The notes under the pieces were generated by a model. It ran no database searches, was not told the origin of the DNA, and saw only the letters and a list, made by a program, of their open reading frames with translations. A stretch of DNA of 64,000 nt from Escherichia phage phiWec179, in the sequence record LC739533.1; one strand, given 5' to 3'. This document shows, piece after piece, positions 3,757 to 41,779 of the stretch. How positions within the stretch are numbered: the stretch's first letter is position 1; every line of letters starts with the position of its first letter. The translations under genes and the position numbers were made by a program.

Positions 3757-4129
3757 TTTCTTCCCCTCCCCCTTTTCCAATAAGCGGCGAAGCCGCGATC
3801 ATCGACTTATAGACAACTTCGGCTGTTCGGGTTAGCCCCGTCCAGTCCTTCGCTGCCTCCAACATTTCTGGGGTAGGCTCTTTCGGGACCAAGACATACC
3901 CTTCTGGGACACACATCCCACTCTCTTTCTTTTCGGCTTCTTCCGACATAACTTGCCACACTCCATAGCTGCAATTCTCGAACAAACAATAGAGTTCAGA
4001 TCCTTCATCATCCACGACAATGAAACAGTTCTCATCTGCTACTTTGGCATTATAGATCCGACCTATGGTCAAATAGTCTCGGACATTAATAAACTTAGAG
4101 GCAAGAAACTTCACACGAATGTTTTTCAT
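3743..4129 (-). CDS. hypothetical protein
   Basis: tiled minus-strand ORF, 128 aa. Confidence 0.45.
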   Translation of the reverse strand: MKNIRVKFLASKFINVRDYLTIGRIYNAKVADENCFIVVDDEGSELYCLFENCSYGVWQVMSEEAEKKESGMCVPEGYVLVPKEPTPEMLEAAKDWTGLTRTAEVVYKSMIAASPLIGKGGGEENEIK

Positions 4130-4365
4130 TTCTTAAACTCCGAAAAGCAACCCAAAGAGATGACCCCGCCATTATAGACGATAGCAAACTGGCACCCTGT
4201 CTTTGTGTCTGTGATGATGTAATCTAAAGCCCCAGTCATGCCAGTTTGAACAAAGCGATCCTTGGTTACAACTTTTGAGTCCGAGAAGCCGTTAACTTTC
4301 GGCACAGTGTCTGCCATAACAGTAGGAGTCACCAGAAACAATGCGATCAGTAATGCCTTTTTCAT
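4126..4365 (-). CDS. small secreted protein
   Basis: GGAGGG + ATG; signal-peptide-like MKKALLIALFLVTPTVMA. Confidence 0.5.
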   Translation of the reverse strand: MKKALLIALFLVTPTVMADTVPKVNGFSDSKVVTKDRFVQTGMTGALDYIITDTKTGCQFAIVYNGGVISLGCFSEFKK

Positions 4366-4376
4366 AAACCCTCCAG

Positions 4377-4691
4377 TTAGCCTTGAAATGAATTGCGACG
4401 ACCAATACGGGCACAGCGATCACCTTCATAAGAGGTGAAATCCAGACTCACTCGGAAGCCAGGGTGGGTATCAGAGATCCCCACATTCTTCACCCACATC
4501 TCGAAACTGCCGATATGTAAGGTCATAATGTTTACATACCATTCCAGCGTCACTTCTGTGCCGTCTACGCCTGTGATGTAGAAATCACGAGCGAAATGGG
4601 TGTCGTGCTTCTGTTTCTGACGCTCATACTTAGCGATTGCACCTTTCTCAACAGCCGCTTTCAGGATCACTTCTAACTCTTCTATTTGCAT
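4377..4691 (-). CDS. hypothetical protein
   Basis: AAGGAGAGAGA + ATG (MQIEE...). Confidence 0.45.
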   Translation of the reverse strand: MQIEELEVILKAAVEKGAIAKYERQKQKHDTHFARDFYITGVDGTEVTLEWYVNIMTLHIGSFEMWVKNVGISDTHPGFRVSLDFTSYEGDRCARIGRRNSFQG

Positions 4692-4745
4692 GTTCTCTCT
4701 CCTTTATTGTTGATGCAACCACTATAATATGTCTGACACTCTCTG

Positions 4746-4961
4746 TCAAATGTTTTCTGCTTCCAGCACTACTCTTTGGATCTGCACGTCATCAATGTTT
4801 GCGAGACAATTCCCTAAAATAAGCCCTGCTCGGAAAGGGGCTTGGAACTTGGAGGAAGCCCCCACTCGAATAGAATACTCCACACCGCACATAACATAAT
4901 CTACACGGTACATATTCAAGCCCATGAACATGAGTTCTTCTTCCGACTCTTCGATTTGCAT
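4746..4961 (-). CDS. hypothetical protein
   Basis: AAGAGGAG + ATG (MQIEE...), same initiation module as 4377..4691. Confidence 0.4.
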   Translation of the reverse strand: MQIEESEEELMFMGLNMYRVDYVMCGVEYSIRVGASSKFQAPFRAGLILGNCLANIDDVQIQRVVLEAENI

Positions 4962-4973
4962 TTTTATCTCCTC

Positions 4974-5528
4974 TTAGTTCCAACTAATAATGATGTGTTT
5001 GATAACCCCAAAAACGCTATATTCCGCTGTTGTCAACGTTACATCTAAACCTTTTGCACGCAACATTGCGGCTACTACATTCACCCCTTCTTTCTGTTTA
5101 TCCATCTCTTCGTAAGAAGAAGGGCTGTTACACAAACCAAAACTCGAAGGTTCAAAATATTTTTGGAATTTTCCCTGTTCTGCATAATCTTCAATCTCCA
5201 GCAGAACACAGTCTACCATTTCAGTAAAATGGGAATTTGCTTGCAGTGCTTTACTACGTAGTTTATCACGTAAACTTCCCACAAACCCTTCCTGATCTTC
5301 TGTTTGCTCTACTTCACAGAAAGGATGAAGTTCAGCCCAGTCCCAAACGTCTCCCTCTAAAGCAAACGTTGTGTTGTAGTTGAAGAAGGTGCAACGTGGA
5401 AGTTCCCCGTTGAAAGAATCCTTCAGCAAAATGTATTTCTTACCATTTGCGTGGAAGAGTTCCCCTTTGATAACCTTGCCTTTCTGGATATCGCTGTCGG
5501 TGGAACGGGTGCAGATAAACTGTTTCAT
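4974..5528 (-). CDS. hypothetical protein
   Basis: GAGGAG + ATG at 5528; 184 aa. Confidence 0.5.
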   Translation of the reverse strand: MKQFICTRSTDSDIQKGKVIKGELFHANGKKYILLKDSFNGELPRCTFFNYNTTFALEGDVWDWAELHPFCEVEQTEDQEGFVGSLRDKLRSKALQANSHFTEMVDCVLLEIEDYAEQGKFQKYFEPSSFGLCNSPSSYEEMDKQKEGVNVVAAMLRAKGLDVTLTTAEYSVFGVIKHIIISWN

Positions 5529-5582
5529 GATTTTCTCCTCTCTGTTTCGATGAGATGATTATGACAAAGACAGATCCTTCTG

Positions 5583-5903
5583 TCAACCAATTATTTCTTC
5601 TGCTATACGTTCTTTTACCCAGTTCACACGATCCACATTCAAATGACAACGGCTTCTTTCCGCTTCTAAGGTGTACTTTCCAAAATTACTGTTGAAAGGC
5701 AACACCATAACCAAATCTTTGCGGTAGAACTGCTCATGCATTTCATCCAGTACAGGTTCGTATCGTTCGCTTTCCCCCATATCGTAAAAATCATAGAGGT
5801 TCGAGCACAAACCTGTGCAACGGGTGAACGGTTCACCTTCAGGAGCACCAGCTTCCAACCATGCCAAATACGTGCGGTAAAATGTTAATAGTTCTTCGCT
5901 CAT
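5583..5903 (-). CDS. paralog family A protein
   Basis: AAGGAGAG + ATG at 5903; LLTFYRTYLAWLEAGAP...GLCSNL...HEQF...LPFN...HLNVDRVNWVKERI. Confidence 0.55.
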   Translation of the reverse strand: MSEELLTFYRTYLAWLEAGAPEGEPFTRCTGLCSNLYDFYDMGESERYEPVLDEMHEQFYRKDLVMVLPFNSNFGKYTLEAERSRCHLNVDRVNWVKERIAEEIIG

Positions 5904-6112
5904 TTCCACTCTCCTTCATGATAGTAAACCTCAAAAGAATAGTAAGTGAACATGCTCATTGTAACACCTCCCATTTCTGGATCAACGGAAGTGTTGTTAT
6001 ACATGTCAACTACTGCCTGACCCGCTGCTTTGGCATGTGCTGCCGAATCACAGGCACAAACATCTTTCTCCCACGGAAACTTGCCATCATACTTAAGACG
6101 GACAATCCACAT
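5900..6112 (-). CDS. hypothetical protein
   Basis: tiled ORF, 70 aa. Confidence 0.4.
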   Translation of the reverse strand: MWIVRLKYDGKFPWEKDVCACDSAAHAKAAGQAVVDMYNNTSVDPEMGGVTMSMFTYYSFEVYYHEGEWK

Positions 6113-6114: not shown

Positions 6115-6342
6115 TTATTCCTCCATCTTAAACCATTGAGGGAATACTTTACGGAAGACACGAGTTGCTTCCAAAAGGAATTCCAATTCTTTTTCCCGAT
6201 CTGCGTTCCAACCGTGTACTTTAACATTGATCGCCAGTGCATCAGCGCGCTGACTCAATGCTTGGCAAATCGGATCGCGCAACACTACCGCATCATAAAA
6301 CTGACAAACAGCTTCAAGTTCATACCAATTATAAGCAGCCAT
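6115..6342 (-). CDS. hypothetical protein
   Basis: tiled ORF, 75 aa. Confidence 0.4.
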   Translation of the reverse strand: MAAYNWYELEAVCQFYDAVVLRDPICQALSQRADALAINVKVHGWNADREKELEFLLEATRVFRKVFPQWFKMEE

Positions 6343-6668
6343 TATTCATTCTCCTCTGCAATACGATCTTTAACCCAATTAATCCTGTCCACGTTCAGGT
6401 GACAGGCATCTGCATCTGACTCTAAAACATATGCATCGTAGTTCTCATTGAAAGGGAGTTCTTGACTCAACCCTTTATAGTGGAACTGTGCGTGCATCTC
6501 ATCTGACAAGGTTATTATAATGAGATTGAAGCCATCCCTGTGCACATAATCGAACAAGTTGGCACACAAACCCACACTTGGCAGAAACGGTCTGCCATAA
6601 GGAGCACCATTTTCAATCCATGCCAGATACTTTTTGTAAAACTTCATCAACTCTTCACTTGTTTTCAT
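6342..6668 (-). CDS. paralog family A protein
   Basis: GAGGTGG + ATG; LMKFYKKYLAWIENGAP...GLCANL...HAQF...LPFN...HLNVDRINWVKDRI. Confidence 0.55.
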   Translation of the reverse strand: MKTSEELMKFYKKYLAWIENGAPYGRPFLPSVGLCANLFDYVHRDGFNLIIITLSDEMHAQFHYKGLSQELPFNENYDAYVLESDADACHLNVDRINWVKDRIAEENE

Positions 6669-9510: not shown

Positions 9511-9701
9511 GATGGTTCTCCTTTATAAAGTAAACCTCTTAGTTCGCATTCTGCCACCAATAGACGGTTGGCTTGATTGTCCATAGACACGTCTATCTCC
9601 ACACTCCAAGCATTAATATACACTTCGTTGATCTTTGCGTCAAGCATTTGTGCAACTAAAGCTACGGCTCCAGCATATTCAAGTTTGATCTCTATAATCA
9701 T
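9507..9701 (-). CDS. hypothetical protein
   Basis: tiled ORF, 64 aa. Confidence 0.4.
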   Translation of the reverse strand: MIIEIKLEYAGAVALVAQMLDAKINEVYINAWSVEIDVSMDNQANRLLVAECELRGLLYKGEPS

Positions 9702-9985
9702 TTAAGATGATCCCTTACCCATTGGATACGGACAGCATTGAGATGAGAACCATCTTCCTTGTATTCTTTCGCGTAATCATCCCAATCCTTATTGAACGGG
9801 AGTTCTGGGTCCAACCCCGCAGCTTCAAACTGTTTTGACATTTCATACAGCAAATCATCATCACAATAACCGAAGAAATAGAGATTAGTACATAAACCCC
9901 ATTCACGGCGGAAAGGATTACCGTCTGGCGCTCCCGCGTCCACCCAATCTGCGTAAGCTTGATAGAACTCTCGTAATGTTTTCAT
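9698..9985 (-). CDS. paralog family A protein
   Basis: AAGGGGTGG + ATG at 9985; LREFYQAYADWVDAGAP...GLCTNL...SKQF...LPFN...HLNAVRIQWVRDHL. Confidence 0.55.
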   Translation of the reverse strand: MKTLREFYQAYADWVDAGAPDGNPFRREWGLCTNLYFFGYCDDDLLYEMSKQFEAAGLDPELPFNKDWDDYAKEYKEDGSHLNAVRIQWVRDHLK

Positions 9986-14406: not shown

Positions 14407-14775
14407 TTATTCAATGCAAGCATTATTTGCATCTTCGATGCGATCTTTCACCCATTGAAGACGTAACGTGTTGGTATGACACGCCAAGTCTATACACTCT
14501 GAAAGGTAATCCATGCAATCTGCATTGAACGGAAGATTGTAGTCCAGTTTTGCACATGTAAATTGTTTCCTCATTTCGTATTTCAAACTATCCAACAAAC
14601 GATCACGCCATCTTTTATCTTCTTCTCTAATTACCTCACCAACAAAATCATCTACATAATCTACCAGACAACCACACAAGCCACTCGTTGTGCGATTCAT
14701 TGCCGGATGGTTGGCAATCCATGCTTTATAGAATCGTATTAATGTTGCACTGCTCAACGGAATGTTACTTTTCAT
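14407..14775 (-). CDS. paralog family A protein
   Basis: AAGGAGG + ATG at 14775; LIRFYKAWI...GLCGCL...RKQF...LPFN...RLQWVKDRI. Confidence 0.5.
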   Translation of the reverse strand: MKSNIPLSSATLIRFYKAWIANHPAMNRTTSGLCGCLVDYVDDFVGEVIREEDKRWRDRLLDSLKYEMRKQFTCAKLDYNLPFNADCMDYLSECIDLACHTNTLRLQWVKDRIEDANNACIE

Positions 14776-15130
14776 TATTGCCTCCTTCACAATCCTGGAT
14801 ACGATCTTCTACCCATTGCACACGCAGTCGGTTGAGATGACATTTTCTGTTTTCACATTCTTCCTCGTAGTCGAAGAAGTTGGTATTGAAAGGTGTGGTT
14901 TTAGACAACCCTGCATACATAAACTGTACCAGCATTTCATCAGCTAAAGCTTCACGCATCTCCCAAAACTGATCCACATCGGCACCATGTATCGGACACA
15001 ATACGTCCCATGCAAAATTGCCTAAACATACGCACAAGCCATTCGCTGTGTTCACCAACTCACTACGGTGAGCCATCCAATTCTTATAGAACATCAGAAG
15101 AGTATCACTACTCAAGGGAATATTTTTCAT
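14765..15130 (-). CDS. paralog family A protein
   Basis: AAGGAG + ATG; LLMFYKNWM...GLCVCL...VQF...TPFN...HLNRLRVQWVEDRI. Confidence 0.55.
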   Translation of the reverse strand: MKNIPLSSDTLLMFYKNWMAHRSELVNTANGLCVCLGNFAWDVLCPIHGADVDQFWEMREALADEMLVQFMYAGLSKTTPFNTNFFDYEEECENRKCHLNRLRVQWVEDRIQDCEGGNNEK

Positions 15131-15131: not shown

Positions 15132-15512
15132 TCAGGCTCCTTTACGATTATGGAAACAATCTTTCACTCGCTCTTGCACCCACTCTACACGAAGCTTGTT
15201 TTCATGCGCTCTGTTGTGGTTATGCTCTTGCACATAGTCTTCGTAGTTCACATTAAAGGGAACACTGACAGACAATCCTGCACAACGAAATTGTTTCTTC
15301 ATTTCTTTTAATGTCGCATCACTTAGGGCACAAAGCTGATTTGCCTGTTCCTCACTGAAGTTACTGTCCCACATCTCATCCCAGATAAAACTATCCAAGC
15401 ATACACATAACCCATGCCTTGTGCGCTCTTTAGTATGATGATCAGCAAGCCAACTTTCATAGAAAGCTAACAACACCGGACTACTCAACGGAACATTTTT
15501 ACTCTCTTGCAT
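15132..15512 (-). CDS. paralog family A protein
   Basis: AGGAG + ATG at 15512; LLAFYESWL...GLCVCL...KKQF...VPFN...RVEWVQERV. Confidence 0.5.
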   Translation of the reverse strand: MQESKNVPLSSPVLLAFYESWLADHHTKERTRHGLCVCLDSFIWDEMWDSNFSEEQANQLCALSDATLKEMKKQFRCAGLSVSVPFNVNYEDYVQEHNHNRAHENKLRVEWVQERVKDCFHNRKGA

Positions 15513-15873
15513 GATAATCTCCTCTCTTGGTTTCATGACAAACATCCTAATTCTCAACGAGGAACATCTTACGATCAATCCTCGGCAATTACAATTCATT
15601 TATCATCGCTTTTCCCTATCAATTATTCTATATATACCTGTTATTTTTGACACCCCCTTTGGTCAAATATTAATCGGCAAAATATCTGGGGGTACTCTAT
15701 AAAATGATGCCCCCTGTTCCTGCAATTTATCGAGGAGAATATCATTCGACTATCATCGGCAAAGAGACAGAAAAGCCTTTGGTAGCAAGGATTTATGGCG
15801 AGTACGTCAGGACTGCTTAACGCGAATTTTTCGGCCCCTCCACTTCTGCGAGCCGGAATCCTCAAATATCAAT

Positions 15874-15892
15874 GAGAATAATTATCATTATC
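15874..15892. promoter_or_regulatory. Fur-box-like 19-bp site GAGAATAATTATCATTATC
   Basis: 16 of 19 matches to GATAATGATAATCATTATC by eye; half-site TGAGAAT shared with 30352..30465. Confidence 0.3.
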
Positions 15893-16055
15893 ATTCGTAT
15901 TCAATAACTTAGGCGATCTTTTCCCCTGCTATAAGGTCGGGCCTAACTTAACCATCACTTTTCAAACAATCCTTTATCAATCAACTACTTAACAACCTAA
16001 ACATATGATTACTACGGTGTAAAGGTGCCGCCCATAACAGACTACCTATAAAATA

Positions 16056-16075
16056 GATGAGAATGATTATTATTC
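16056..16075. promoter_or_regulatory. second operator-like site (GATGAGAATGATTATTATTC)
   Basis: same half-site family; preceded by CTATAAAAT as at 15687. Confidence 0.25.
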
Positions 16076-16269
16076 AGACAATTCTTACAACAAATCGACC
16101 AACAAATCAAGAATTTTCTTATTTTTATTCACGTTTAAGAGAACGTGCTCAACATTCCGCTACGCGTAACGGTTCGCCCCCAAAAGATTAGCCTTTGCTT
16201 TCCTGTATATTTATACACTATGTGCAAGGTGTCGCTACACGCTCGCCTTGCCCCGCATAATCCTTCACT

Positions 16270-16498
16270 GTGCTAATGATTTCATAGTGCAACAATAACA
16301 CTTATTATTATATTACGCTTAATTATTCTTACATACAATGCTAATAATAAGCCAGCGTAATTAGTGTAAGCGTAATACGCTTGCAATAATTGCAAGCTAC
16401 ATAATCACAAGAAATAACCATCACCGATGGTTATGATTGTGGGGGTGTAGTTGGCTTATTATTAGCTCGCTACGTGTCCGGCGTAGCGTGCTAATGAT
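16270..16498. repeat. nested repeat/palindrome element
   Basis: direct repeat GTGCTAATGAT at 16270 and 16488; 14-bp inverted repeat GCTAATAATAAGCC (16340-16353 / 16453-16466); perfect palindromes GCTTGCAATAATTGCAAGC (16379-16397) and ATAACCATCaccGATGGTTAT (16414-16434). Confidence 0.6.
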
Positions 16499-16577
16499 GA
16501 CTCTATGAATGATTCATTTTGCAATTATTACAGTCTTCACTATTTCGGCAATAGTTATTATTTTAATGGTTTCATTT

Positions 16578-16737
16578 GTTATCGTTAGTTAGTTGGTTGT
16601 TTTGTCGTGTTATCGTTATCTTGCTTAGTATTCATCATGGTTTGATTGTTTGTCGTTATCAATCATCTTTCTATTATTCCTTTGATTATGATTAGTTTGC
16701 TTATTGTTTTAAGTCGTTAGTTGGTTAGTTGTTGCGA
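16578..16737. repeat. iteron-like direct repeats
   Basis: TCGTTAGTT(AGTT)GGTT at 16581 and 16713; GTTATCGTTA / TGTCGTTATC recurring in T-rich ORF-free DNA. Confidence 0.45.
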
Positions 16738-17011
16738 ACTGTTATCAACATTATAGTTATGCACTTATATTGCATAGATACGCAAGGGTAGATGATAATG
16801 GTTATCATTGCACTGGAAAGGAAGAAAACAGCCTTTTTCGGTTGTTTGTTGTTGGTTGTTGATCGATTTTAACCGCTCTAAATAGCTCTCTAATAGCCTG
16901 TTGCCCTGGGGTGTATGGTTATTCGTTTAATGGTTGATTAGCTCGATACCGCGATCTATTCAGTTTTGTTCTGTGTCGGTTTTTCATAGGCGGAATCTAT
17001 CAACATTGTTC

Positions 17012-17052
17012 GGGCAAAAAGAAAGGGCGCTTTGTGCGCCCTTGTTTTGTTG
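17012..17052 (-). terminator. rho-independent terminator closing the minus-strand small-gene array
   Basis: hairpin AAGGGCGCtttgtGCGCCCTT flanked by T-runs on both strands, just past stop of 17057..17476. Confidence 0.6.
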
Positions 17053-17056
17053 TCAA

Positions 17057-19028: not shown

Positions 19029-19171
19029 TTTTATTACTCCTTAAAACCAGGTGCCAACCGTTTCCAATAAGTCACTGACTACCAGAACAACATTGATTAG
19101 CACATATTTAATCAGGAAGGGGATTAGCGCCAGCGTCGCTACTATGATCCCCATTATGATGATTATTTTTC

Positions 19172-19462
19172 TCATGGTTGGCGGTTTACGTGGGCTTTAC
19201 CGTTTACGGTCATCGGTATGGCCTCAAGGTCTGGATCTTCCTTAAGGTCGCGTGCAAGCTCACCGCACCGGATACCCTCGAATCCGTGGTATTCTGTTTC
19301 CCCGTCCTTAAAAGTTTTAGCGGCAAGGCATAGGCGATAATTAACACCGATCCGGTTTACTGCGTTGATATCGGTTAACGTGATCGATTCCGGCAAATCG
19401 TTAGCCATTACAGGCGCGTTAATACCAACAACCAGGGCAACTACTGCGATCATCTTTTTCAT
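19172..19462 (-). CDS. small secreted protein
   Basis: signal-peptide-like MKKMIAVVALVVGINAPVMA. Confidence 0.5.
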   Translation of the reverse strand: MKKMIAVVALVVGINAPVMANDLPESITLTDINAVNRIGVNYRLCLAAKTFKDGETEYHGFEGIRCGELARDLKEDPDLEAIPMTVNGKAHVNRQP

Positions 19463-19491: not shown

Positions 19492-19508
19492 GGGGGCGTT
19501 GCCGCCCC
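19492..19508 (-). promoter_or_regulatory. 5'UTR GC hairpin (no clear promoter)
   Basis: GGGGCGttgcCGCCCC upstream of 19172..19462. Confidence 0.4.
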
Positions 19509-19773: not shown

Positions 19774-19789
19774 TGGGGCGTTGCCGCCC
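19774..19789 (-). promoter_or_regulatory. 5'UTR GC hairpin (no promoter)
   Basis: GGGGCGttgcCGCCCC between 19799..20098 and 19518..19754. Confidence 0.4.
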
Positions 19790-19798
19790 CTTTGTTGA

Positions 19799-20788: not shown

Positions 20789-20893
20789 TTAACCGATACC
20801 GTGGGAAGATAGGATCATATTAGCCATAGTTGCAACCACTCCAACCGATAACGCCAGGCCAACCACTGCAACCGTGAAAATTTTCTCTAACAT
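20789..20893 (-). CDS. small hydrophobic peptide (34 aa)
   Basis: GAGGG + ATG directly after cassette; MLEKIFTVAVVGLALSVGVVATMANMILSSHGIG; below ORF-track cutoff. Confidence 0.3.
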   Translation of the reverse strand: MLEKIFTVAVVGLALSVGVVATMANMILSSHGIG

Positions 20894-22735: not shown

Positions 22736-22855
22736 TTATAAGATGATTGATAAGATAGTGATAACGAAAGCGATAACACCAACGGCGATCGTAGTCTTAC
22801 GCCCTTCGGATACTGCCGGATTCTCTACCGTGTATTCTACTGTGTATTTGTTCAT
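22736..22855 (-). CDS. small membrane peptide (39 aa)
   Basis: GAGAGGATAACACA + ATG; hydrophobic C-terminus IAVGVIAFVITILSIIL; below ORF-track cutoff. Confidence 0.3.
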   Translation of the reverse strand: MNKYTVEYTVENPAVSEGRKTTIAVGVIAFVITILSIIL

Positions 22856-23258: not shown

Positions 23259-23310
23259 CGCGGCACCATTGCCGCCCTACGTAATACACTTTACCTTATT
23301 TCTTCCAAAA
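23259..23310 (-). promoter_or_regulatory. promoter + 5'UTR stem-loop cassette (PeSL-like)
   Basis: TAAAGT -10, GTATTACGTAGG + hairpin GCGGCAATGGTGCCGC; -35 weak, overlaps upstream gene end. Confidence 0.45.
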
Positions 23311-23496
23311 AGCAAGTTTATTTGCAATTGGTGACAAATAACGTTTACCCGCGTAAAACAGTACAGCGACACTAACCACGGCGGCGATCTCATGCATAGC
23401 CGACGGGAAACGAGTATCATAATAAGATCCAATAATAGCAATAGCGGCAACGGCTGCAACGTCGATAATGATTTTTTCTTGTTTTGCGGTGATCAT
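23296..23496 (-). CDS. small membrane protein
   Basis: hydrophobic VAAVAAIAIIGSYY and VVSVAVLFYAG. Confidence 0.45.
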   Translation of the reverse strand: MITAKQEKIIIDVAAVAAIAIIGSYYDTRFPSAMHEIAAVVSVAVLFYAGKRYLSPIANKLAFWKK

Positions 23497-23797: not shown

Positions 23798-23828
23798 GAA
23801 AGGGCGCTATTTGCGCCCTTGATTTGTT
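23798..23828 (-). terminator. intergenic hairpin (terminator/attenuator-like)
   Basis: AAGGGCGCtatttGCGCCCTT, same motif family as 17023 and 17588. Confidence 0.4.
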
Positions 23829-27890: not shown

Positions 27891-28001
27891 TTACTTCAAA
27901 ATGATTGTTGTGATAACTGCTACGGTGATCCAGAATGGAACAACTAAGATAATAGCGTTAATCGTTCCAACTGTCAAACTATTTTCTTTCTTGATCATCA
28001 T
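27891..28001 (-). CDS. small membrane peptide (36 aa)
   Basis: AAGGAAAAC + ATGATG; hydrophobic GTINAIILVVPFWITVAVITTIILK. Confidence 0.35.
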   Translation of the reverse strand: MMIKKENSLTVGTINAIILVVPFWITVAVITTIILK

Positions 28002-28008: not shown

Positions 28009-28092
28009 TTACAGTGTCCAAAGAATGATTTCAAGTGCAGCACGGAAACCAGGAATAAAATTGATTGCAAAAAACAGGGAAGTAGTAAACAT
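28009..28092 (-). CDS. tiny hydrophobic peptide (27 aa, tentative)
   Basis: AAAGGA + ATG right after cassette; MFTTSLFFAINFIPGFRAALEIILWTL. Confidence 0.25.
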   Translation of the reverse strand: MFTTSLFFAINFIPGFRAALEIILWTL

Positions 28093-31632: not shown

Positions 31633-31998
31633 TTAGTCCATCCACCAGTAGCCATAAACTGCGTCTGCGTCGATGAGTTTGTGTTTGTTGTTCCGCATGT
31701 AGTCTAAGATAAGTAGACGTTTATTGTATCTGGAGAGATTATGACCCTCTTTTCCGCCATAGTCAAAATATTTTGCAAGACTTTTACACTCAAACAAAAT
31801 CAGTTCGGGAGTTTCTTCACATTGGTCTGTCTGGTACACTTGACGGATGATCATGTATACGTCATCGTCTTCCGCTAAGTGCTCTACTGGTCCACACCCA
31901 GCAGGAATAAATTCATAGTCCCATCGAATCAGATGTTTCTCTACTGCTTCAAAGAAATCCATTTTTTCGCTACGCATGATCTGAACATCAATTAACAT
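31633..31998 (-). CDS. hypothetical protein
   Basis: 121 aa. Confidence 0.5.
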   Translation of the reverse strand: MLIDVQIMRSEKMDFFEAVEKHLIRWDYEFIPAGCGPVEHLAEDDDVYMIIRQVYQTDQCEETPELILFECKSLAKYFDYGGKEGHNLSRYNKRLLILDYMRNNKHKLIDADAVYGYWWMD

Positions 31999-33004
31999 AA
32001 TTTTCCTCCTGTCTCATTATTCCACCTGCTTGGTTGATAGCACTTAAGACAACAGCCAAATCCTCACGCAGGAAGGTTTCACTATGACCGTCTTTCATGT
32101 GCAACGCTTCCACACAGCCGATAGACGGTAGGATCTGATCAGTCTTAGATTTTAGCTTACTCTCTAACGCCCTGCAAGCCTGGTAGGACGGCAGATCAAA
32201 CAATGCTACACGTTGCATAAAGTAGTTATTATTTGCATTCTGAATCTTCAAACGTATATCACTATCCTTTGCAATCCCCAGCTTGAAAGCTCCCGTATCT
32301 TCTCCATACTCATCAAGGATAACGTTGATGTAAAATTCTTGCTGTGATCTGCCTTTACATTCAGAACAACCATTCCCACTTAGATACTTATTAGGTGTTA
32401 TCGTTTGTTCTCCGTGCTCACTACATAAATATTTAAACTTAGACATGGTTCCCACCTTACCAACGAACCCTATAAACTGGTCCCCTCGTTCCTGGCAAGC
32501 TTCAGTCATACGGAAAATCCATTGCGCAGGAGTGTAACGATGGTTTTTAGAACAACGGCAAGCAAGCAGCCCATCTCTAAGACTGCTCCTCGTTACTTCA
32601 AACCTACCGTTACACACGCCAGCCTTTACATATTCGTCATGAGAACATACGGAACACTTAACTATCCAATAAGCCGCCCATCCTTTACTATCTAATCTAT
32701 CACTACGATAATACTCACGCGGAACGTTATCAGGACACGCTTTGTTAAAGGTTGTGATATGGATTGAATCATCAATTAAACATGTTTGCCTTATTGCTTC
32801 CACCCTACAACCTTTACAACCACTTCCTATTTTAGCATTATCTATAGAAGTTGTTCTCCATTCCCCATGTATAGAACATTCACAGGTTAGTTTAGTGCGT
32901 GCCCCCTTCCATTCACCATGCCACCCCGTAATGGTCCACGGTTTATCCTGGTAAGCTTGTTCTATTTCTTCCTGATATTCCTCCCAACTTTTAGCCCTCA
33001 TCAT
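31988..33004 (-). CDS. zinc-ribbon repeat + T5orf172 (GIY-YIG-like) domain protein, homing-endonuclease-like
   Basis: repeated C..C...G.GC..C zinc-ribbon units; C-terminal FKLGIAKDSDIRLK...HMKDGHSETF; paralog of 36572..37525. Confidence 0.5.
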   Translation of the reverse strand: MMRAKSWEEYQEEIEQAYQDKPWTITGWHGEWKGARTKLTCECSIHGEWRTTSIDNAKIGSGCKGCRVEAIRQTCLIDDSIHITTFNKACPDNVPREYYRSDRLDSKGWAAYWIVKCSVCSHDEYVKAGVCNGRFEVTRSSLRDGLLACRCSKNHRYTPAQWIFRMTEACQERGDQFIGFVGKVGTMSKFKYLCSEHGEQTITPNKYLSGNGCSECKGRSQQEFYINVILDEYGEDTGAFKLGIAKDSDIRLKIQNANNNYFMQRVALFDLPSYQACRALESKLKSKTDQILPSIGCVEALHMKDGHSETFLREDLAVVLSAINQAGGIMRQEENYVN

Positions 33005-34249: not shown

Positions 34250-34609
34250 TTAGATCCCTTCGCCTTTAGTGATGATAGCTTCCATCACCACAGCTTTCTT
34301 CTTACGTTGAACATCTTGACGGATCAGGAGGCTACCACCTTGATCATCCTTATACTGCTTCATGATGATGAAGTTGTTGCCACACACAGCGCCGATAGCC
34401 ACGTATGGGCGATTAGAATTATCCACATCCGCAGATGGGGTTACATCCGTGCAAGTAAAGAACTTGCCATCAGGATCAGTATAAGCAAAGTGGCCTTTAG
34501 CAGTTACTGCAACTTCTCCGGTGCTTGTGGACTGTGCAGCCACAAACGGTGCAGCAGATGCTACGAAACTTGCAGACAGCAGGGCTACAGCTAAAATAAT
34601 CTTTTTCAT
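34250..34609 (-). CDS. secreted protein
   Basis: signal-peptide-like MKKIILAVALLSASFVASA. Confidence 0.5.
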   Translation of the reverse strand: MKKIILAVALLSASFVASAAPFVAAQSTSTGEVAVTAKGHFAYTDPDGKFFTCTDVTPSADVDNSNRPYVAIGAVCGNNFIIMKQYKDDQGGSLLIRQDVQRKKKAVVMEAIITKGEGI

Positions 34610-34619: not shown

Positions 34620-34781
34620 TCTTATTCCAACAACATACACAATGCAGCTACAACCAAGAACAGAGTAGCCACGCTTAAAGCGATAAACATTCCTAATTGA
34701 GAATGAAATTCGCCTATGATAGGTGCAGACAACGCACTTAGCAAACAACCTGTCAAACTTGCTTTGATAATAAGATCTAAC
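34620..34781 (-). CDS. small membrane protein (53 aa)
   Basis: AGGAGG + ATG; two hydrophobic segments; below ORF-track cutoff. Confidence 0.35.
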
Positions 34782-34791
34782 ATATTACCTC

Positions 34792-35644: not shown

Positions 35645-35830
35645 TTAACCAATTAGTTGGACTGCCTTGCAGATGTAAATCCAAACAGGACTAAGCATAA
35701 GTGCTACAATACTGGGGTAAATCCCTTTTGGCTCTATCTCAATTATTGATAAGATTAAGGTGACAGCACTGATAAACATATAAGCTCCCAAGAAAGCCAG
35801 CGTCAAGAATTCAGACATAATTAGCTCCAC
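35645..35830 (-). CDS. small membrane protein
   Basis: hydrophobic FLTLAFLGAYMFISAVTLILSI. Confidence 0.4.
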   Translation of the reverse strand: MELIMSEFLTLAFLGAYMFISAVTLILSIIEIEPKGIYPSIVALMLSPVWIYICKAVQLIG

Positions 35831-36153
35831 AAGTTATGAAAATATTCAGCAAACAGGCAACGACCTTCGATTTTATCCGTTTTGGTCATAACGGATTCAG
35901 GTTTAAAACCTTCAATCATTTGATCAATAATGGATAACCACTCCACTGTAGCTTCCCGCTCCTGCTCTTCTGTTAGTTTACGGTAATCTGACACATATTT
36001 AGCCCAAATCTTAGATGGGATAAGGATATCCCCTCGTTCCACAATACGTGCCTTGAACGCGTACAGTCCAGCACAGATAATCGCGGAGAACGTATCATCC
36101 AGGTCTTGCAGATCTTCTACGCCAAATTGTAATTCATCATGGATAATTTTCAT
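35821..36153 (-). CDS. hypothetical protein
   Basis: 110 aa. Confidence 0.5.
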   Translation of the reverse strand: MKIIHDELQFGVEDLQDLDDTFSAIICAGLYAFKARIVERGDILIPSKIWAKYVSDYRKLTEEQEREATVEWLSIIDQMIEGFKPESVMTKTDKIEGRCLFAEYFHNLWS

Positions 36154-36571: not shown

Positions 36572-37525
36572 ATGAAATACGAAGATTTTAAACAAATAGT
36601 TAAAGACGATGTGGTATTTGAGAACTTACAGGAAGGTTGTGAAGTCTTAGGTTGGACAGAAAGAGATAGAAACTTTGCAAAAATATACGTAATACGTTGT
36701 AGTGTTTGTGCCAAAGACCCCGAAATGTATGGAGATGGTCTTTTTACAGCTACAAAAGGGCGTTTAGTGAAAGGTCAGAAATGTTGCGCGTGCGCTGTAT
36801 CCTTTAAATACAGTCAAAACCAACACCTAATTCTGCTAAACAGGCATTTAAGTGTCGCAGGGTACAGCATAGTTTCTATTGGTGCTTGGGAGTGTTCTAA
36901 GACGAGAATAGAGTTTAGTTGTGAGAATGGACACACGAAGAACAGAACCCTGGCTCAAGCAAAGGTAGTAGAACCTTGTAAACAGTGTCTTGAAGAAGGC
37001 TGTACAAAACACAAACAAGATGAGGCAGAGGCAAAAATTATGAAGATAATAGAAGATAAATGTTTACCTTATGTATTTGTAGGGTGGGATACTTCTTACA
37101 AGAATGTAACTTCAAAATTCAACCTCATCTGTTCGGATCACGGTTTAAAAACAATAAGATACGCTTGTTTCCTAAATGGTCATTTTTGTAACGAGTGTTC
37201 TGGTAGAAATTGCCTAAGTCTTTATTTATTAGGAGTTTATGATAGAGACTTGTTGGTAGGTTTAAAATTTGGCATCTCTCAGAGTCCAGTAAGAAGGGTT
37301 CAACAGTTAAATAAAAGGAACTTATTTAAATGTAAAATACTACAGATTTGGACTTTTACATCACATGATCAAGCTGTACGGATGGAAACATTATTAAAGA
37401 ACACATTGCGAACTGGAATATTTACTAAAAGAGAGATGAAAGATGGTCATACAGAAACCACAGAAGTTACTAATTTAGAAACCATAATGGACCTTATGAC
37501 CTCATCTCATGGATTGGTTAGTTAA
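36572..37525 (+). CDS. zinc-ribbon repeat + T5orf172 (GIY-YIG-like) domain protein, homing-endonuclease-like
   Basis: CSVCAKDP..CCAC, CKQCLEEGC, CNECSG cysteine pairs; C-terminal LKFGISQSPVRRVQQL...EMKDGHTETTEV. Confidence 0.5.
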   Translation: MKYEDFKQIVKDDVVFENLQEGCEVLGWTERDRNFAKIYVIRCSVCAKDPEMYGDGLFTATKGRLVKGQKCCACAVSFKYSQNQHLILLNRHLSVAGYSIVSIGAWECSKTRIEFSCENGHTKNRTLAQAKVVEPCKQCLEEGCTKHKQDEAEAKIMKIIEDKCLPYVFVGWDTSYKNVTSKFNLICSDHGLKTIRYACFLNGHFCNECSGRNCLSLYLLGVYDRDLLVGLKFGISQSPVRRVQQLNKRNLFKCKILQIWTFTSHDQAVRMETLLKNTLRTGIFTKREMKDGHTETTEVTNLETIMDLMTSSHGLVS

Positions 37526-37820
37526 CAAAAACCTTAACATTTCCGATGTTCTTGCTGACTTCTTGTGAGAACATTGAAAGTACCTTGTCAAGCAGTTTTA
37601 CTAATTCATTTGTAATTTGTTCCTCTGAACGAGAAGAAGTAAGTACCTTACTCTCACCAACGATGTGCATCACCTTGATAGGAGCATTCAGGATAACATT
37701 GTGCTTTTCATCTTCTTCGAAAGATGCTAACCACTTCTCATTATTCCCGTGCAAAGCCACGATAACACCAAAACCGTTAATAGTTTGTGAAATGTTCTTA
37801 GTTGCTAATGTAATGTTCAT
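37518..37820 (-). CDS. hypothetical protein (lone minus-strand gene)
   Basis: AGAGAGG + ATG; own promoter TTGACC-N16-TACAAT at 37849..37876. Confidence 0.45.
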   Translation of the reverse strand: MNITLATKNISQTINGFGVIVALHGNNEKWLASFEEDEKHNVILNAPIKVMHIVGESKVLTSSRSEEQITNELVKLLDKVLSMFSQEVSKNIGNVKVFVN

Positions 37821-37937: not shown

Positions 37938-38375
37938 ATGCAAAACATCAAACTGACTTGGACCGAAGCTAAAGAAGCAATGAAGGAAGGTAGACGTGTT
38001 AAACACGAGTATTTCTGTGGTGGGGAATGGTTTGAGATGCAATATGGTGTTATTCTGGACGAACATGGTTATAATATGACTGATTGGTATCGTGACGAAG
38101 CTTGGCAGGATGATGGTTGGTCTGTGGTTGAGAAAGAAGGTAATGAGGAAGAAGGACTGTTGTCTAATGTAGAGCGCGAAATGCGGGAAACAAAGGTGCC
38201 CGAACTGGACTACCATCACCTGGAACTTCTTGTGGCAGCATCTTTCGCTACTGGAGATACAATGTGGCAAACTCCGGTGTCCCGTGTCGATAACCAAAAT
38301 AAACCGTCTGCCCGTAATCACAAGCTTTACAAAGGTAAAGGTCATAACAAACTGAAGAAAGGAAAGAAGAAATGA
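37938..38375 (+). CDS. hypothetical protein
   Basis: GAGAGGAG + ATG; 145 aa, Lys-rich C-terminus. Confidence 0.5.
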   Translation: MQNIKLTWTEAKEAMKEGRRVKHEYFCGGEWFEMQYGVILDEHGYNMTDWYRDEAWQDDGWSVVEKEGNEEEGLLSNVEREMRETKVPELDYHHLELLVAASFATGDTMWQTPVSRVDNQNKPSARNHKLYKGKGHNKLKKGKKK

Positions 38376-38518
38376 TCTACAAAAACAAGTTCACTGGTTG
38401 TCTACGTAAGTTTGTCGATAAAAAAGGTTATGTTTCGCTTGACAACGGGACTACATGGGTGCAGAATGGGACTTCAGAACAATTGATCAAGGCTCTGCCT
38501 TACTACGAGGAGGTTTAA
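38372..38518 (+). CDS. small protein (48 aa)
   Basis: ATGA overlap with upstream stop; stop overlaps next ATG; below ORF-track cutoff. Confidence 0.35.
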   Translation: MIYKNKFTGCLRKFVDKKGYVSLDNGTTWVQNGTSEQLIKALPYYEEV

Positions 38519-39096: not shown

Positions 39097-39302
39097 GCGG
39101 TTGGATTAAGGTATCTGGCACCGAAGATGTTCCTGTAGGAGAGTGGCTTGTCATCATGGCAGACGGCAAGAAGGGCTTCTGTGAGGTGCACAAAGCCGCA
39201 AAAGGGACAATAGCAGTCATTAACCGTTTATTTTACTTTGACTGTGAACCTGTAATAGCGTATCATGCATTACCAACTTATGAAGAGGAGACTAACAAAT
39301 GA
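39093..39302 (+). CDS. hypothetical protein
   Basis: 69 aa; ATGA overlap. Confidence 0.45.
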   Translation: MSGWIKVSGTEDVPVGEWLVIMADGKKGFCEVHKAAKGTIAVINRLFYFDCEPVIAYHALPTYEEETNK

Positions 39303-39595
39303 GCCTTACCACTATGCACAAAACACTGCTCAAACTATTTAACAATCAACGTAATCTTTTGATCGAAGATTTCCGTAGCTTTAAACGTAACAAGGTCAAT
39401 CGTGCCTACATGCCTCATTCAGCCTTTGATGCCACGTTAAAAGAGTTTCGTAACCGTATCTCTGAAATGGATGCTTACATCCGTGGCACAAAGCTTGCAC
39501 GCACAGTAACTATCCAAACAGGATTGTTGCACTTTTATGATGGAACTACCGGATCGATCTACAATCCAGACAGCATAGAGAATTATTTAAAATAG
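39299..39595 (+). CDS. hypothetical protein
   Basis: 98 aa; ATGA overlap. Confidence 0.5.
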   Translation: MSLTTMHKTLLKLFNNQRNLLIEDFRSFKRNKVNRAYMPHSAFDATLKEFRNRISEMDAYIRGTKLARTVTIQTGLLHFYDGTTGSIYNPDSIENYLK

Positions 39596-39604
39596 TTGTT
39601 GACT

Positions 39605-39690: not shown

Positions 39691-39797
39691 GTAATTATAG
39701 TTTCTATCGTTAGATTGTTCGAAGAACAGAAACTTAGATCTTGTTCTTATCGTTAGATGATCGTAAGATCAAGAACATAATATAGAGGAGATAAAGA

Positions 39798-40334
39798 ATG
39801 AAATTGTTAGACTATGCGATGGTTATGGATCTTAGTGTGCTTCGTGACGATGCTCAATACATGACACAGAACCAGGATGGCACCTTAAACCTGTATTCTG
39901 CCTATCCACGTAATCATGGTCCAGTTACAACTTACGGTTGGGGTGATAGCAACTTCCTGGATTACTACCCAGCACCACGTAGCCTGGAAACTGCTGAAGA
40001 TTGGTTCCACTCTATTATCAACTTGCAAGCAATCCGTGACTACCAAGAGAGTGGGTCAGATAGCAACCTGGCAAATACATTGGGAACGTTGAATACCATC
40101 TCTTACAAAGAGAAGCCGCCTAAGCTTTACTTCCTGCGGGATATTCCAGAAGGCACTTTCTTTGTCTATGGCGGTGCTGACGCTTCTGGTGAGCCTCCTA
40201 TCTGGCAGAAAGTAGATGGCGGTTTAGCAGTTATGTTTGATACAGGGATCACTTCTCCGCAAGATACTTTCTCTCAAGATCGTGTGTGGAAAATCTTGAA
40301 AGCGCATCTGACTGTTAGCCCAATCCGAGAATAA
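39798..40334 (+). CDS. hypothetical protein
   Basis: AGAGGAG + ATG; 178 aa. Confidence 0.5.
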   Translation: MKLLDYAMVMDLSVLRDDAQYMTQNQDGTLNLYSAYPRNHGPVTTYGWGDSNFLDYYPAPRSLETAEDWFHSIINLQAIRDYQESGSDSNLANTLGTLNTISYKEKPPKLYFLRDIPEGTFFVYGGADASGEPPIWQKVDGGLAVMFDTGITSPQDTFSQDRVWKILKAHLTVSPIRE

Positions 40335-40412
40335 TCCTAATCTGCAAATAAGTCTTGATCACGAGGTTGTATTCTGATAGAATGCAATCTCACTAAACAA
40401 AAGGAGATTTAA

Positions 40413-40610
40413 ATGGCTACGAAGAAACAAAAAATGAAGTGTCTGTCACTGACTCAACTGGGGCATAGTTCTGGTTGTGTGACGATCGGAAAAACCTACT
40501 CCACCACTTTGAATAAAGAGAACAACAGCTTTACATTCAAAGATGACAATGGTAACATGCAAGTGGGGATTTACCCTGAGTGTGCATTCGGTACTTGGGA
40601 AAAAGTTTAA
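40413..40610 (+). CDS. hypothetical protein
   Basis: AAGGAG + ATG; 65 aa. Confidence 0.45.
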   Translation: MATKKQKMKCLSLTQLGHSSGCVTIGKTYSTTLNKENNSFTFKDDNGNMQVGIYPECAFGTWEKV

Positions 40611-40629
40611 TTAACTGATCGGAGGGAGT

Positions 40630-40803
40630 ATGCAAGACAAGAAAAACAATGTTCGTTATGCTTTGTACGGACGTATGGGCGTAGACTGCGAATGGAGACT
40701 TCTGTTACAGCGTATTCCCTCTTATCAAGAAGCTATGACGAAGAGAGAACATTATAAGAAGACGTGGAGACACGTTGTTTGCAAACATTACGAGGAGGCA
40801 TAA
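40630..40803 (+). CDS. small protein (57 aa)
   Basis: GGAGGGAGT + ATG; stop TAA overlaps next ATG (TAATG); below ORF-track cutoff. Confidence 0.35.
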   Translation: MQDKKNNVRYALYGRMGVDCEWRLLLQRIPSYQEAMTKREHYKKTWRHVVCKHYEEA

Positions 40804-41111
40804 TGAGCACATTATCAACAGCAGTCAAGTTCCACCAGGATTATGAAGAAGCTGTCAAAGATGCTGACAATCCTTCCTCATTAGTGTTTGAGGATCGTAC
40901 AGGTTTGAAGTGGGTTAAATCTTTCGATGAGATCTATTTCTGGTATCCGCAGGGAGCCACAAGCAATAGTTCTCTGTATAGCTACGAACTGGAATACCGT
41001 GGCCCTGTAGACGAAGATGAAAACTTTATCATGTATTTCGTAAATAATGGTTGCGGTGAAACGTTTAATGTTGTATTCTCTAAAGCAGATGAGTCTGACG
41101 AGGAGGTGTAA
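40803..41111 (+). CDS. hypothetical protein (tandem paralog 1)
   Basis: GAGGAGG + ATG at 40803; FIMYFVNNGCGETFNVVF shared with next gene. Confidence 0.5.
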   Translation: MSTLSTAVKFHQDYEEAVKDADNPSSLVFEDRTGLKWVKSFDEIYFWYPQGATSNSSLYSYELEYRGPVDEDENFIMYFVNNGCGETFNVVFSKADESDEEV

Positions 41112-41416
41112 TGCAGTACAATACGACTTTAAGTTTGGCAGTTGCAGCCCACATGCTGTACAATGATTCTGTGAAGGATGAGTTGTCGCCTGTGAGTTTA
41201 GCTTTCTATCTGATAGAAAGGGATTGGATGTTCTCTGGTGAGGACGAAATCTACTACGTAAATTCGCGCGGTTTTATTGAAAGTTTTGAACTTGAACATC
41301 GCGCACCGACAGCAGAAGATGATCGTTTTATTATGTTCTGTGTAAATGATGGTTACGGAGAGGTATATGACGTAGTATTCTTCAAAAACCGACAGAAGAC
41401 TGAAGAGGAATTCTAA
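41111..41416 (+). CDS. hypothetical protein (tandem paralog 2)
   Basis: FIMFCVNDGYGEVYDVVFF; paralog of 40803..41111. Confidence 0.5.
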   Translation: MQYNTTLSLAVAAHMLYNDSVKDELSPVSLAFYLIERDWMFSGEDEIYYVNSRGFIESFELEHRAPTAEDDRFIMFCVNDGYGEVYDVVFFKNRQKTEEEF

Positions 41417-41779
41417 ATGAAAAAGCTACTTTGTGTCCTGATGTTGATGATTGCCACCAATGCTACAGCCGCCCGTGACGGTTTCAAGATTGGGGTGGAA
41501 GGTAGCCAATTCTTCACTTGGTACGGTGGTGAAGCTGTCTACCAGGTGGATGATAAAAAGTATAACTGTAAGTTTGATCGTATAGATCGTGGAGTAGATA
41601 ATTGGGGCGACGCTTATAAAGCAACAGGTTTTTATTGCACCAAAGAAATCTACATTACGGTCAAAGAACCACAAGACAACAGAAAGGTGTTGTTTATTGT
41701 GATAAACCCTGCTAAATTTGAAGAACGTAAAGCTTACTATGCAGATATGTTCATTGAATACAAAAAGGAGGAAAAATGA
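41417..41779 (+). CDS. secreted protein
   Basis: signal-peptide-like MKKLLCVLMLMIATNATAA. Confidence 0.5.
   Translation: MKKLLCVLMLMIATNATAARDGFKIGVEGSQFFTWYGGEAVYQVDDKKYNCKFDRIDRGVDNWGDAYKATGFYCTKEIYITVKEPQDNRKVLFIVINPAKFEERKAYYADMFIEYKKEEK

Follow-up and report, generated by a model that had tools for sequence, protein, structure and literature searches.

Small proteins with predicted signal peptides, and conserved tiny membrane peptides, in the accessory gene arrays of Escherichia phage phiWec179

We analysed a 64,000-nucleotide stretch of Escherichia phage phiWec179 (sequence record LC739533.1), here called the window, for four small genes denoted A, B, C and D and for the tiny hydrophobic peptides encoded around them. 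On the sequence evidence set out below, the N-termini of the four products are very probably genuine Sec signal peptides, and export of the proteins to the cell envelope is highly likely. The open reading frames (ORFs) of A, B and C lie on the minus strand and that of D on the plus strand (Table 1). Sequence comparison places them in three unrelated families (A, B and C/D), none of known function.

Each of the four proteins starts with MKK, which is followed by an uncharged hydrophobic core of 10-13 residues and then by a small-x-small motif. With a slash marking the putative cleavage site, the predicted signal peptides are MKKALLIALFLVTPTVMA/DTVP for A (VMA/D, after residue 18), MKKMIAVVALVVGINAPVMA/NDLP for B (VMA/N, after residue 20), MKKIILAVALLSASFVASA/APFV for C (ASA/A, after residue 19; alternatively VAA/Q, after residue 25) and MKKLLCVLMLMIATNATA/ARDG for D (ATA/A, after residue 18). 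Among the approximately 161 genes of our own gene call, these four gave the four highest scores (at least 5.6) in a heuristic of our own that weighs the n-, h- and c-regions. Residue-shuffled proteomes yielded on average 0.1 strong scores and at most 2 (300 shuffles), so that the observed excess was about 40-fold, and none of 250 internal-Met fragments used as a control scored. The claim of a sequence-only reading of this DNA, that classical signal-peptide-like N-termini occur at all four ORFs, is borne out by these scores and by the retention of the signal in relatives.

Within alignments of the C/D family (25 sequences), the B family (21) and the A family (10), the signal peptide was retained in divergent homologs while its exact sequence drifted. 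A trained predictor supports the call for one of these homologs: the record of phi92 gp204, a homolog of D, carries a SignalP 3.0 annotation (P=0.998, cleavage probability 0.990). The sites in A, B, C and D are of the signal peptidase I type, with no Cys at +1. The mature part of each, and that of a fifth exported protein at 60105-60626, contains exactly two Cys, as expected of small periplasmic domains held by a single disulfide. A Shine-Dalgarno sequence precedes every ORF cited here except TM44 (described below), and A, B, C, D and the 39-amino acid (aa) ORF at 22736-22855 are annotated coding sequences in the related phage phiWec181. With very probable Sec signal peptides and membrane-type tiny ORFs, the description of these products as envelope-directed is a sound inference.

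Several other candidates were discarded. The ORF at 37518-37820 reached only a weak signal-peptide score (4.3), and regular-expression lipobox matches at 5900-6112, 16798-16872, 34622-34783, 38372-38518 and 49239-49679 showed no proper hydrophobic signal on inspection and were rejected as lipoproteins. When A-D, the SleB-like protein at 60105-60626 and five tiny peptides were scanned against Pfam, PHROGs, NCBIfam and PADLOC, the only matches were PHROGs labelled "unknown function", "membrane protein" or "endolysin", a weak match to DUF6440, and Hydrolase_2. Further paralogs of A, B or C/D were not found in the six reading frames of the window.

A 12-kb piece of the window was 97.5% identical to Escherichia phage phiWec181, as against 88-93% for other phAPEC8-like phages; the DNA of relatives is 88% identical to the window over the 18-30 kb region. 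The taxonomy of phiWec181 is given as Caudoviricetes; Stephanstirmvirinae; Phapecoctavirus, and nearly all of its genes are annotated "hypothetical protein". By sequence the source phage is a phAPEC8-like Phapecoctavirus (Stephanstirmvirinae) and not a member of the Tevenvirinae; the T4-type framing of the sequence-only reading does not hold for a window 97% identical to phiWec181.

Proteins C and D both match phrog_5474 (E=5.6e-19 for C, E=4.6e-32 for D). They share 25% identity with both Cys in register and, judged by sequence, are distant paralogs. A word-indexed homolog search gave seven matches to the family; 23 clusters were found when 1.8 billion representatives were searched exhaustively with a profile. 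In the resulting alignment, whose members are 17-77% identical to D, an MKK-hydrophobic-AxA N-terminus is present in nearly all, and the only invariant columns are the two Cys. The phi92 protein gp204 is 46% identical to D over its full length; it shares with D a signal peptide, annotated in its GenBank record, and a position with downstream neighbours that have rV5/PVP-SE1-type homologs. The stop codon of D overlaps the start of the next gene. A confident AlphaFold2 (AF2) model of D, built from the 25-sequence alignment, shows a signal helix and eight consecutive beta strands (pLDDT, the per-residue confidence, 84.8; pTM, the predicted template-modelling score, 0.73); for the mature domain an all-beta, eight-stranded fold is predicted. 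Of the best 50 PDB matches that Foldseek gave for this model none was significant (best E=0.012, TM-score below 0.5); the nearest non-significant neighbours were lipocalin-like barrels (DUF4251, YodA/ZinT) and a type VI secretion system (T6SS) immunity protein. Against BFVD the model matched uncharacterised phage proteins and one protein of Serratia phage Moabite labelled "Putative lysozyme inhibitor" (E=2.6e-6, TM-score 0.66); the label is a depositor's annotation that we could not substantiate, the Moabite genome paper making no mention of it. Directly upstream of C lies the hydrophobic protein TM53, which matches phrog_27459 (E=1.1e-11). The two genes are adjacent and syntenic in phage Schickermooser, where the TM53 ortholog is 47% identical with a ratio of nonsynonymous to synonymous differences (pN/pS) of 0.5, and C and TM53 probably act as a two-component module.

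The C and D loci are divergent between related genomes. Identity to the syntenic Schickermooser orthologs is 38% for C, 47% for TM53 and 54% for D, and 80-98% for most neighbours. D is at least 90% identical in 36 phage records and less than 60% identical in 90, its downstream neighbour being at least 95% identical in 69. For C, only 5 records reach at least 95% identity and 65 fall below 60%; its upstream neighbour is at least 95% identical in 28. Among the C homologs below 60%, one locus was inspected, that of Schickermooser, and it is syntenic; the genome sets behind the counts for C, D and their neighbours are presumed to overlap. As far as sequences can tell, the pattern is of the kind seen for genes under diversifying or frequency-dependent selection. 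It is the sole hint toward exclusion or lysis control, roles suggested for these proteins by analogy.

Protein B matches phrog_9845 (E=5.2e-57), and homologs at 77-98% identity occur in 172 phage records, including those of rV5-like Vequintavirus; by this distribution B belongs to the core genes of both Phapecoctavirus and the rV5-like phages. Across the family its signal peptide and Cys pair are essentially invariant. In the AF2 model, which is moderately reliable, the mature part (pLDDT about 84) forms three long strands and one helix. A fold search with it against the PDB returned nothing but noise (fragments of HIV reverse transcriptase and RNase H), and a match of the family profile to Evasin among PDB sequences (E=0.09) was likewise set aside as noise. 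The ATG of TM44, a hydrophobic peptide matching phrog_16005 (E=4.9e-26), overlaps the TGA of B (ATGA); TM44 has no Shine-Dalgarno sequence of its own and, from this arrangement, is translationally coupled to B. It is 66-86% identical in relatives (pN/pS 0.25-0.39), including the rV5-like phage JohannBauhin, in which it is annotated, and always stands directly after B. The gene order in JohannBauhin is a 34-aa transmembrane peptide, a 71-aa protein, B, TM44 and a 63-aa protein. Secreted protein and membrane partner have thus been kept side by side across two phage subfamilies, and B and TM44 probably act as a two-component module. A reading of B with TM44, or of C with TM53, as two-component spanins was rejected: B and C have no lipobox, and TM44 and TM53 are almost wholly hydrophobic and have no periplasmic domain.

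Protein A, whose stop codon and the start codon of the following gene overlap (ATGA), belongs to a family in which the signal peptide is present in 10 of 10 aligned members, both Cys are invariant, and the motif ITDxKTGCQ...LGCFxEYKK recurs; only one homolog (Klebsiella phage phi1_175008) has an LSGC lipobox instead. The family was found in only 7 Phapecoctavirus records, in 7 IMG/VR loci and in jumbo phages, with relatives at 40-50% identity in jumbo phages of Edwardsiella, Serratia, Pseudomonas, Kosakonia and Shewanella; at pattern-level sensitivity, none was found in 185,579 bacterial species genomes. By its distribution A is a sporadic accessory gene, a rare secreted module. Its two PHROG matches are weak (E about 0.005-0.01). 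DUF6440 was matched by 9 of the 10 members (best E=1.2e-5), A itself reaching 14.9 bits, below the Pfam gathering cut-off of 26.5, which suggests a divergent relative of DUF6440 and not a certified member. The matches cover the conserved RF...ITDxKTG...GG..L core of DUF6440, a family with no known function; the A family differs in adding a signal peptide and two invariant Cys. An "RcsF" label on the Kc263 homolog was rejected, as no member gave a Pfam RcsF match at E up to 1.

The sequence-only reading had also pointed to tiny hydrophobic peptides at 20789-20893, 22736-22855 and 27891-28001, and these proved to be conserved ORFs (pN/pS 0.15-0.47), each annotated in at least one relative. Together with TM44 and TM53, neither of which that reading listed, they form a set of five that is 47-100% identical in relatives, with hydrophobic residues exchanged for hydrophobic ones and pN/pS of 0.15-0.50 in codon comparisons; these values indicate purifying selection on real membrane-type genes. 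The first two match PHROGs (phrog_14631, E=8.5e-22; phrog_10979, "membrane protein", E=9.2e-20). The JohannBauhin ortholog of the first, MKQKLIDAVILVIALGIGLIATMSNMILSSNGIG, lies two genes upstream of B; the second is the only one of the tiny ORFs annotated in phiWec181 and is labelled "membrane protein" in Schickermooser and anhysbys. The third has no PHROG match, and its pN/pS is 0.15-0.19 at a synonymous divergence (pS) of up to about 0.6, so that it is conserved at the protein level and not merely through an overlapping promoter match. Its relatives begin at the second Met, as in the 31-aa coding sequence of Schickermooser and anhysbys, and its true start is probably the second ATG (27998). 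The hydrophobic ORF that adjoins it (28009-28092) is not conserved beyond phiWec181 and is probably no gene. A loose hydropathy threshold (Kyte-Doolittle at least 1.6) did not discriminate, giving 20 putative transmembrane proteins in the window and 21 in shuffled proteomes; the criterion was therefore changed to at least 2.2 combined with conservation tests, and at 2.2, 7 of the 50 window proteins of up to 70 aa are membrane-type. Four further membrane proteins absent from the earlier list (Table 1) gave no Pfam match; two (109 aa and 68 aa) carry at the N-terminus a transmembrane segment resembling a signal anchor, and two (66 aa and 57 aa) have two hydrophobic segments.

Table 1. Coordinates of the exported proteins, membrane peptides and other features of the window (a slash marks a predicted cleavage site)
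Feature	Coordinates	Strand	Description
A	4126-4365	-	79-aa precursor; predicted signal peptide 1-18; 61-aa mature module; invariant Cys58 and Cys73
B	19172-19462	-	96-aa precursor; predicted signal peptide 1-20; 76-aa acidic mature protein; near-invariant Cys45 and Cys66; phrog_9845
TM44	19041-19175	-	44-aa hydrophobic peptide; phrog_16005
C	34250-34609	-	119-aa precursor; predicted signal peptide 1-19 (ASA/A) or 1-25 (VAA/Q); Cys53 and Cys76; phrog_5474
TM53	34622-34783	-	53-aa hydrophobic protein directly upstream of C; phrog_27459
D	41417-41779	+	120-aa precursor; predicted signal peptide 1-18; 102-aa mature domain; Cys51 and Cys74; phrog_5474
34-aa peptide	20789-20893	-	N-terminal transmembrane segment; phrog_14631; pN/pS 0.35-0.47
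39-aa peptide	22736-22855	-	C-terminal transmembrane segment; phrog_10979; pN/pS 0.30-0.38
35/36-aa peptide	27891-28001	-	C-terminal transmembrane segment; no PHROG match; pN/pS 0.15-0.19 at pS about 0.6
E, fifth exported protein	60105-60626	+	173 aa; predicted signal peptide of about 28 residues (AEA/A); SleB-type hydrolase domain; two Cys in mature part
Further membrane proteins	1616-1945, 2971-3177, 23296-23496, 35645-35818	-	No Pfam match
Ter-like (tellurite-resistance-type) cluster	52786-53760, 58088-58888, 59405-60007	+	TerC (1.1e-39), vWA-TerF-like (2.7e-37), TerD (1.8e-29); just upstream of E
Small membrane proteins near the Ter-like cluster	52483-52704, 54159-54401
Eight-member paralog family	1948-2277, 3412-3756, 5583-5903, 6342-6668, 9698-9985, 14407-14775, 14765-15130, 15132-15512	-	Three in tandem at 14.4-15.5 kb
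Paralogous gene pair, first member	31988-33004	-	About 320-340 aa; the pair flanks the C-containing block
Paralogous gene pair, second member	36572-37525	+	About 320-340 aa; on the opposite strand

The genes called in the window form a leftward array from 1 to 36.4 kb, with rightward genes beyond; a divergent promoter region at about 36.5-37.9 kb separates the operon-like run that contains C from the one that contains D. Between 16 and 31 kb we counted 65 matches to the sigma-70 promoter consensus where 34 ± 6 were expected, with near-perfect TTGACA-N16/17 boxes ahead of most small genes. For the corresponding array of the rV5 genome, E. coli-consensus promoters throughout have been described, and so have 15 proteins with transmembrane domains (PMC3606486). 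The arrays appear, from these motifs, to be driven by host sigma-70. Where the sequence-only reading spoke of early-gene arrays, the richness in sigma-70-type promoter matches stands, and from these consensus matches early expression is plausible. A literature search returned neither transcriptome nor superinfection-exclusion data for this phage group. On the minus strand from 17 to 30 kb the array is regular, nearly all small genes being separated by a spacer of 80-90 bp that holds a near-consensus TTGACA-N16/17 -35 box and a weaker -10 box. Some GC-rich hairpins occur more than once in identical form: GGGGCGTTGCCGCCCC at 19493-19508 and 19775-19790, and AAGGGCGC....GCGCCCTT at 17023-17043 and 23800-23820. 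In the interval 15513-17056 (about 1.5 kb) there is neither a credible ORF nor a tRNA or Rfam match (a tRNA and Rfam search of the whole window was negative); short direct repeats of the GTT/GTTATC type and small inverted repeats are abundant there, and the GC skew shifts. Its probable counterpart in rV5 is the box drawn there as "non-coding" (PMC3606486), and it is a possible origin or regulatory region.

The fifth exported protein, E, had a slightly weaker signal-peptide score than A-D. It matches Pfam Hydrolase_2 (5.7e-17) and PHROG "endolysin" families, and the SleB model TIGR02869 at 7.7e-11, below the model cut-off. It would be a peptidoglycan hydrolase that is exported and distinct from the customary endolysin, and as such would need some control.

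We propose that A, B, C and D are secretory precursors which would pass through the host Sec translocon, be cleaved by signal peptidase I and be released into the periplasm, each mature domain (61-102 aa) most likely being locked by a single disulfide via the host Dsb system. With at least five conserved inner-membrane peptides of 34-53 aa they would make up the envelope-directed share of the accessory gene arrays. Their small size, the two conserved Cys and the lack of a catalytic signature make it most likely that they work stoichiometrically, by binding to some component of the envelope; the target could be a receptor or porin of the host, the machinery of peptidoglycan, or part of an incoming phage. 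What they would most plausibly do is shield the infected cell from secondary infection or envelope damage, in the manner of T4 Spackle and without homology to it. Support for this proposal lies in the signal-peptide anatomy, the family-wide signal peptide and Cys pair, the coding constraint, the gene coupling and the allele divergence of C and D; export and cleavage in the cell, disulfide formation, early timing, the binding mechanism and an exclusion purpose are what we infer. That A-D are exported accessory proteins which act in the envelope by binding is, in our judgement, moderately probable; that they serve superinfection exclusion specifically, which is argued by analogy, is doubtful and put forward tentatively.

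By architecture, Spackle (gp61.3) is the closest characterised analogue of A-D. Made early, it loses its localisation signal by cleavage; the mature form has 75 aa and one disulfide, and through its binding to the gp5 tail lysozyme superinfection is blocked (PMC7677548). Like A-D it is a small protein of a virulent myovirus, with an N-terminal signal (cleaved in Spackle, predicted to be so in A-D), a single Cys pair and no enzymatic motif; it differs in being an alpha-helical bundle, whereas D is predicted to be all-beta and B a beta-sheet with one helix. In structure only the Cys pair is common. The exclusion factors T5 Llp and Cor are likewise small, phage-encoded and exported to the envelope, and are described as made soon after infection and acting by receptor binding; they are lipoproteins with a lipobox Cys, whereas A-D have signal peptidase I sites, and there is no sequence similarity. 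The sequence-only reading had argued from the early envelope proteins of T4-type phages; homology to the T4 exclusion and lysis-inhibition proteins (Imm, Spackle, RI), or to any other known exclusion factor, was not found in Pfam, PHROGs, NCBIfam, PADLOC, PDB profile or Foldseek searches. For Imm, RI, Cor and Llp no match was obtained with the four signal-peptide proteins and the five tiny peptides (Pfam E up to 0.1, PHROGs E up to 0.01, NCBIfam and PADLOC E up to 0.1), and for the Spackle family none of the proteins gave a Pfam, PHROG or NCBIfam match and the three family profiles gave no credible match to PDB sequences.

A more specific form of the exclusion proposal treats the C/D family as a class, hitherto unrecognised, of periplasmic beta-barrels that are carried by phages and plasmids and act by binding, their alleles setting who is excluded. 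Each allele would neutralise the matching envelope-penetration component (e.g., the tail lysozyme or a tip protein) of related superinfecting phages, and B with TM44 would be a conserved two-component envelope module common to Stephanstirmvirinae and Vequintavirinae. Such allele-specific exclusion would explain the deeply diverged C/D alleles at syntenic loci of otherwise near-identical Phapecoctavirus genomes; we nevertheless hold this form to be unlikely.

Several results weigh against the exported-binder proposal or against its exclusion purpose. A-D themselves were scored with our own heuristic and not with SignalP or DeepTMHMM, the trained call standing for the phi92 homolog of D only. 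No functional homology was found for A-D in the Pfam, PHROGs, NCBIfam, PADLOC, PDB profile or Foldseek searches. The model of B is unstable, two of five models being good and three poor, and B at 77-98% identity lacks the allele divergence seen at C and D, a poor fit to an arms-race exclusion factor. Neighbours of C and D that are not exported diverge as much from their Schickermooser counterparts (35821-36153, 38%; 39299-39595, 41%; 41111-41416, 43%), so that the divergence is not specific to exported genes and may reflect ordinary mosaicism. Some distant relatives of C and D are not in phages but on small plasmids or beside resolvases. Early expression of the array genes is plausible, from promoter-consensus matches alone.

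The main alternative, an attractive one, is that C and D (and perhaps A or B as well) inhibit peptidoglycan hydrolases in the periplasm for the benefit of the phage's own lysis programme and not for exclusion. They might restrain the hydrolase at 60105-60626 or tune lysis timing in another way, as an analogue of lysis inhibition. The window does encode this signal-peptide-bearing cell-wall hydrolase, which if uncontrolled would attack the wall once exported. The bacterial lysozyme inhibitors Ivy, MliC, PliC, PliG, as well as PliI, are mainly beta-sheet (PMC7677548), as D is predicted to be; inhibitors of the MliC/PliC type resemble D in being small (about 100 aa), periplasmic or lipoproteins, and beta-rich. 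The unsubstantiated Moabite label and the T6SS immunity protein among the weak PDB neighbours of D point the same way. Sequence and fold searches gave it no support: Pfam MliC, PliC, Ivy and PliG gave no match in 25 members of the C/D family at E up to 1, the family profile gave no match to PDB sequences at E up to 10, and no lysozyme inhibitor is among the top 50 Foldseek PDB matches of D, all with E above 0.01. The conserved loop motifs of MliC/PliC are SxSGAxY and YxxxTKG. A regular-expression search of the C/D family found neither SGAxY nor YxxxTKG, and the Ivy signature is likewise absent. C and D also lie 18-26 kb away from the hydrolase gene. We consider this alternative unlikely.

Slightly less likely, in our estimate, is that A-D are mobile-element cargo altering host envelope physiology, with no relation to phage competition; such cargo might block an envelope-stress or defence sensor of the host, or protect against colicins, antibiotics or host lysozyme. 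The C/D family lends itself to this account, since distant members adjoin resolvase and MerR genes and are found on two mobilizable Aeromonas plasmids, so that the family would be general mobile-element cargo and not strictly phage-borne. A is sporadic and common to jumbo phages of many genera, and the Ter-like cluster (TerC, vWA-TerF, TerD) is an instance of envelope and stress cargo carried by the phage. Against it, no particular target is indicated, Pfam lends no support to the "RcsF" label of A's homolog in Kc263, and no PADLOC defence-system model matches any of A-D.

It is very unlikely that the N-termini are uncleaved signal anchors or domains of the signal-arrest-release (SAR) type, which would leave the proteins membrane-tethered in type II orientation and not soluble, as in T4 RI; they would face the envelope all the same, though their topology and release would differ. 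The hydrophobic cores of A-D do also score as weak transmembrane segments (1.8-2.2 in a 19-residue Kyte-Doolittle window), C offers two candidate cleavage sites and its h/c region is long and rich in Ala and Ser, and AF2 renders the N-terminus of D as a helix. Against this, the h-regions are short, at about 10-13 residues, and lead into canonical V/A-x-A motifs conserved in homologs; Leu, Ile and Val abound in them, where SAR domains are rich in Gly and Ala; and the high SignalP 3.0 cleavage probability of the phi92 homolog speaks for processing.

That the signal-peptide-like starts and tiny hydrophobic ORFs are functionless chance features of short ORFs in an AT-rich genome is extremely improbable and effectively refuted by the conservation data: the loose hydropathy threshold and the non-conserved ORF at 28009-28092 behave as chance would have it, but the strong signal-peptide scores exceed those of shuffles, the cited ORFs are conserved with pN/pS of at most 0.5 and have ribosome-binding sites or translational coupling, PHROG matches exist for all of them but 27891-28001 (that of A being weak), and signal peptide and Cys pair persist at 17-50% identity.

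Phages of the phAPEC8-like and rV5-like groups are widely used in therapeutic and biocontrol cocktails, and about 80% of their genes are "hypothetical". Knowing which products are envelope-targeted narrows the hunt for factors in superinfection control, in cocktail compatibility (mutual exclusion of related phages) and in lysis timing. The C and D loci are the first candidates, as their alleles differ sharply between near-identical genomes; B with TM44 comes next, as it is conserved over two subfamilies. Should they prove to act in exclusion, they would constitute new families with no relation to the T4, T5 or P1 paradigms. Exported small proteins are in themselves ordinary for a large virulent phage, and the gain here is one of incremental annotation and no surprise; the genes are already present as PHROGs of unknown function and as GenBank hypotheticals, and phi92 gp204 had already been annotated with SignalP.

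The leftward array also holds a dispersed family of eight paralogs of about 95-126 aa with 27-54% mutual identity, and further paralog pairs are present (12133/12658, 9289/13903, 40803/41111, 57814/59108 and 31988/36572). The last pair has a counterpart in relatives annotated "endonuclease", and a related contig carries DUF723/CapR domains; these two genes may be homing-type endonucleases that add to local mosaicism. Some records near-identical to these coliphages were deposited as phages of Campylobacter, Pseudomonas, Acinetobacter or Serratia (e.g., PsgM04F, vB_AbaM_ABPW7 and Campylobacter phage A140), and these host labels are probably mis-assignments or contaminants.

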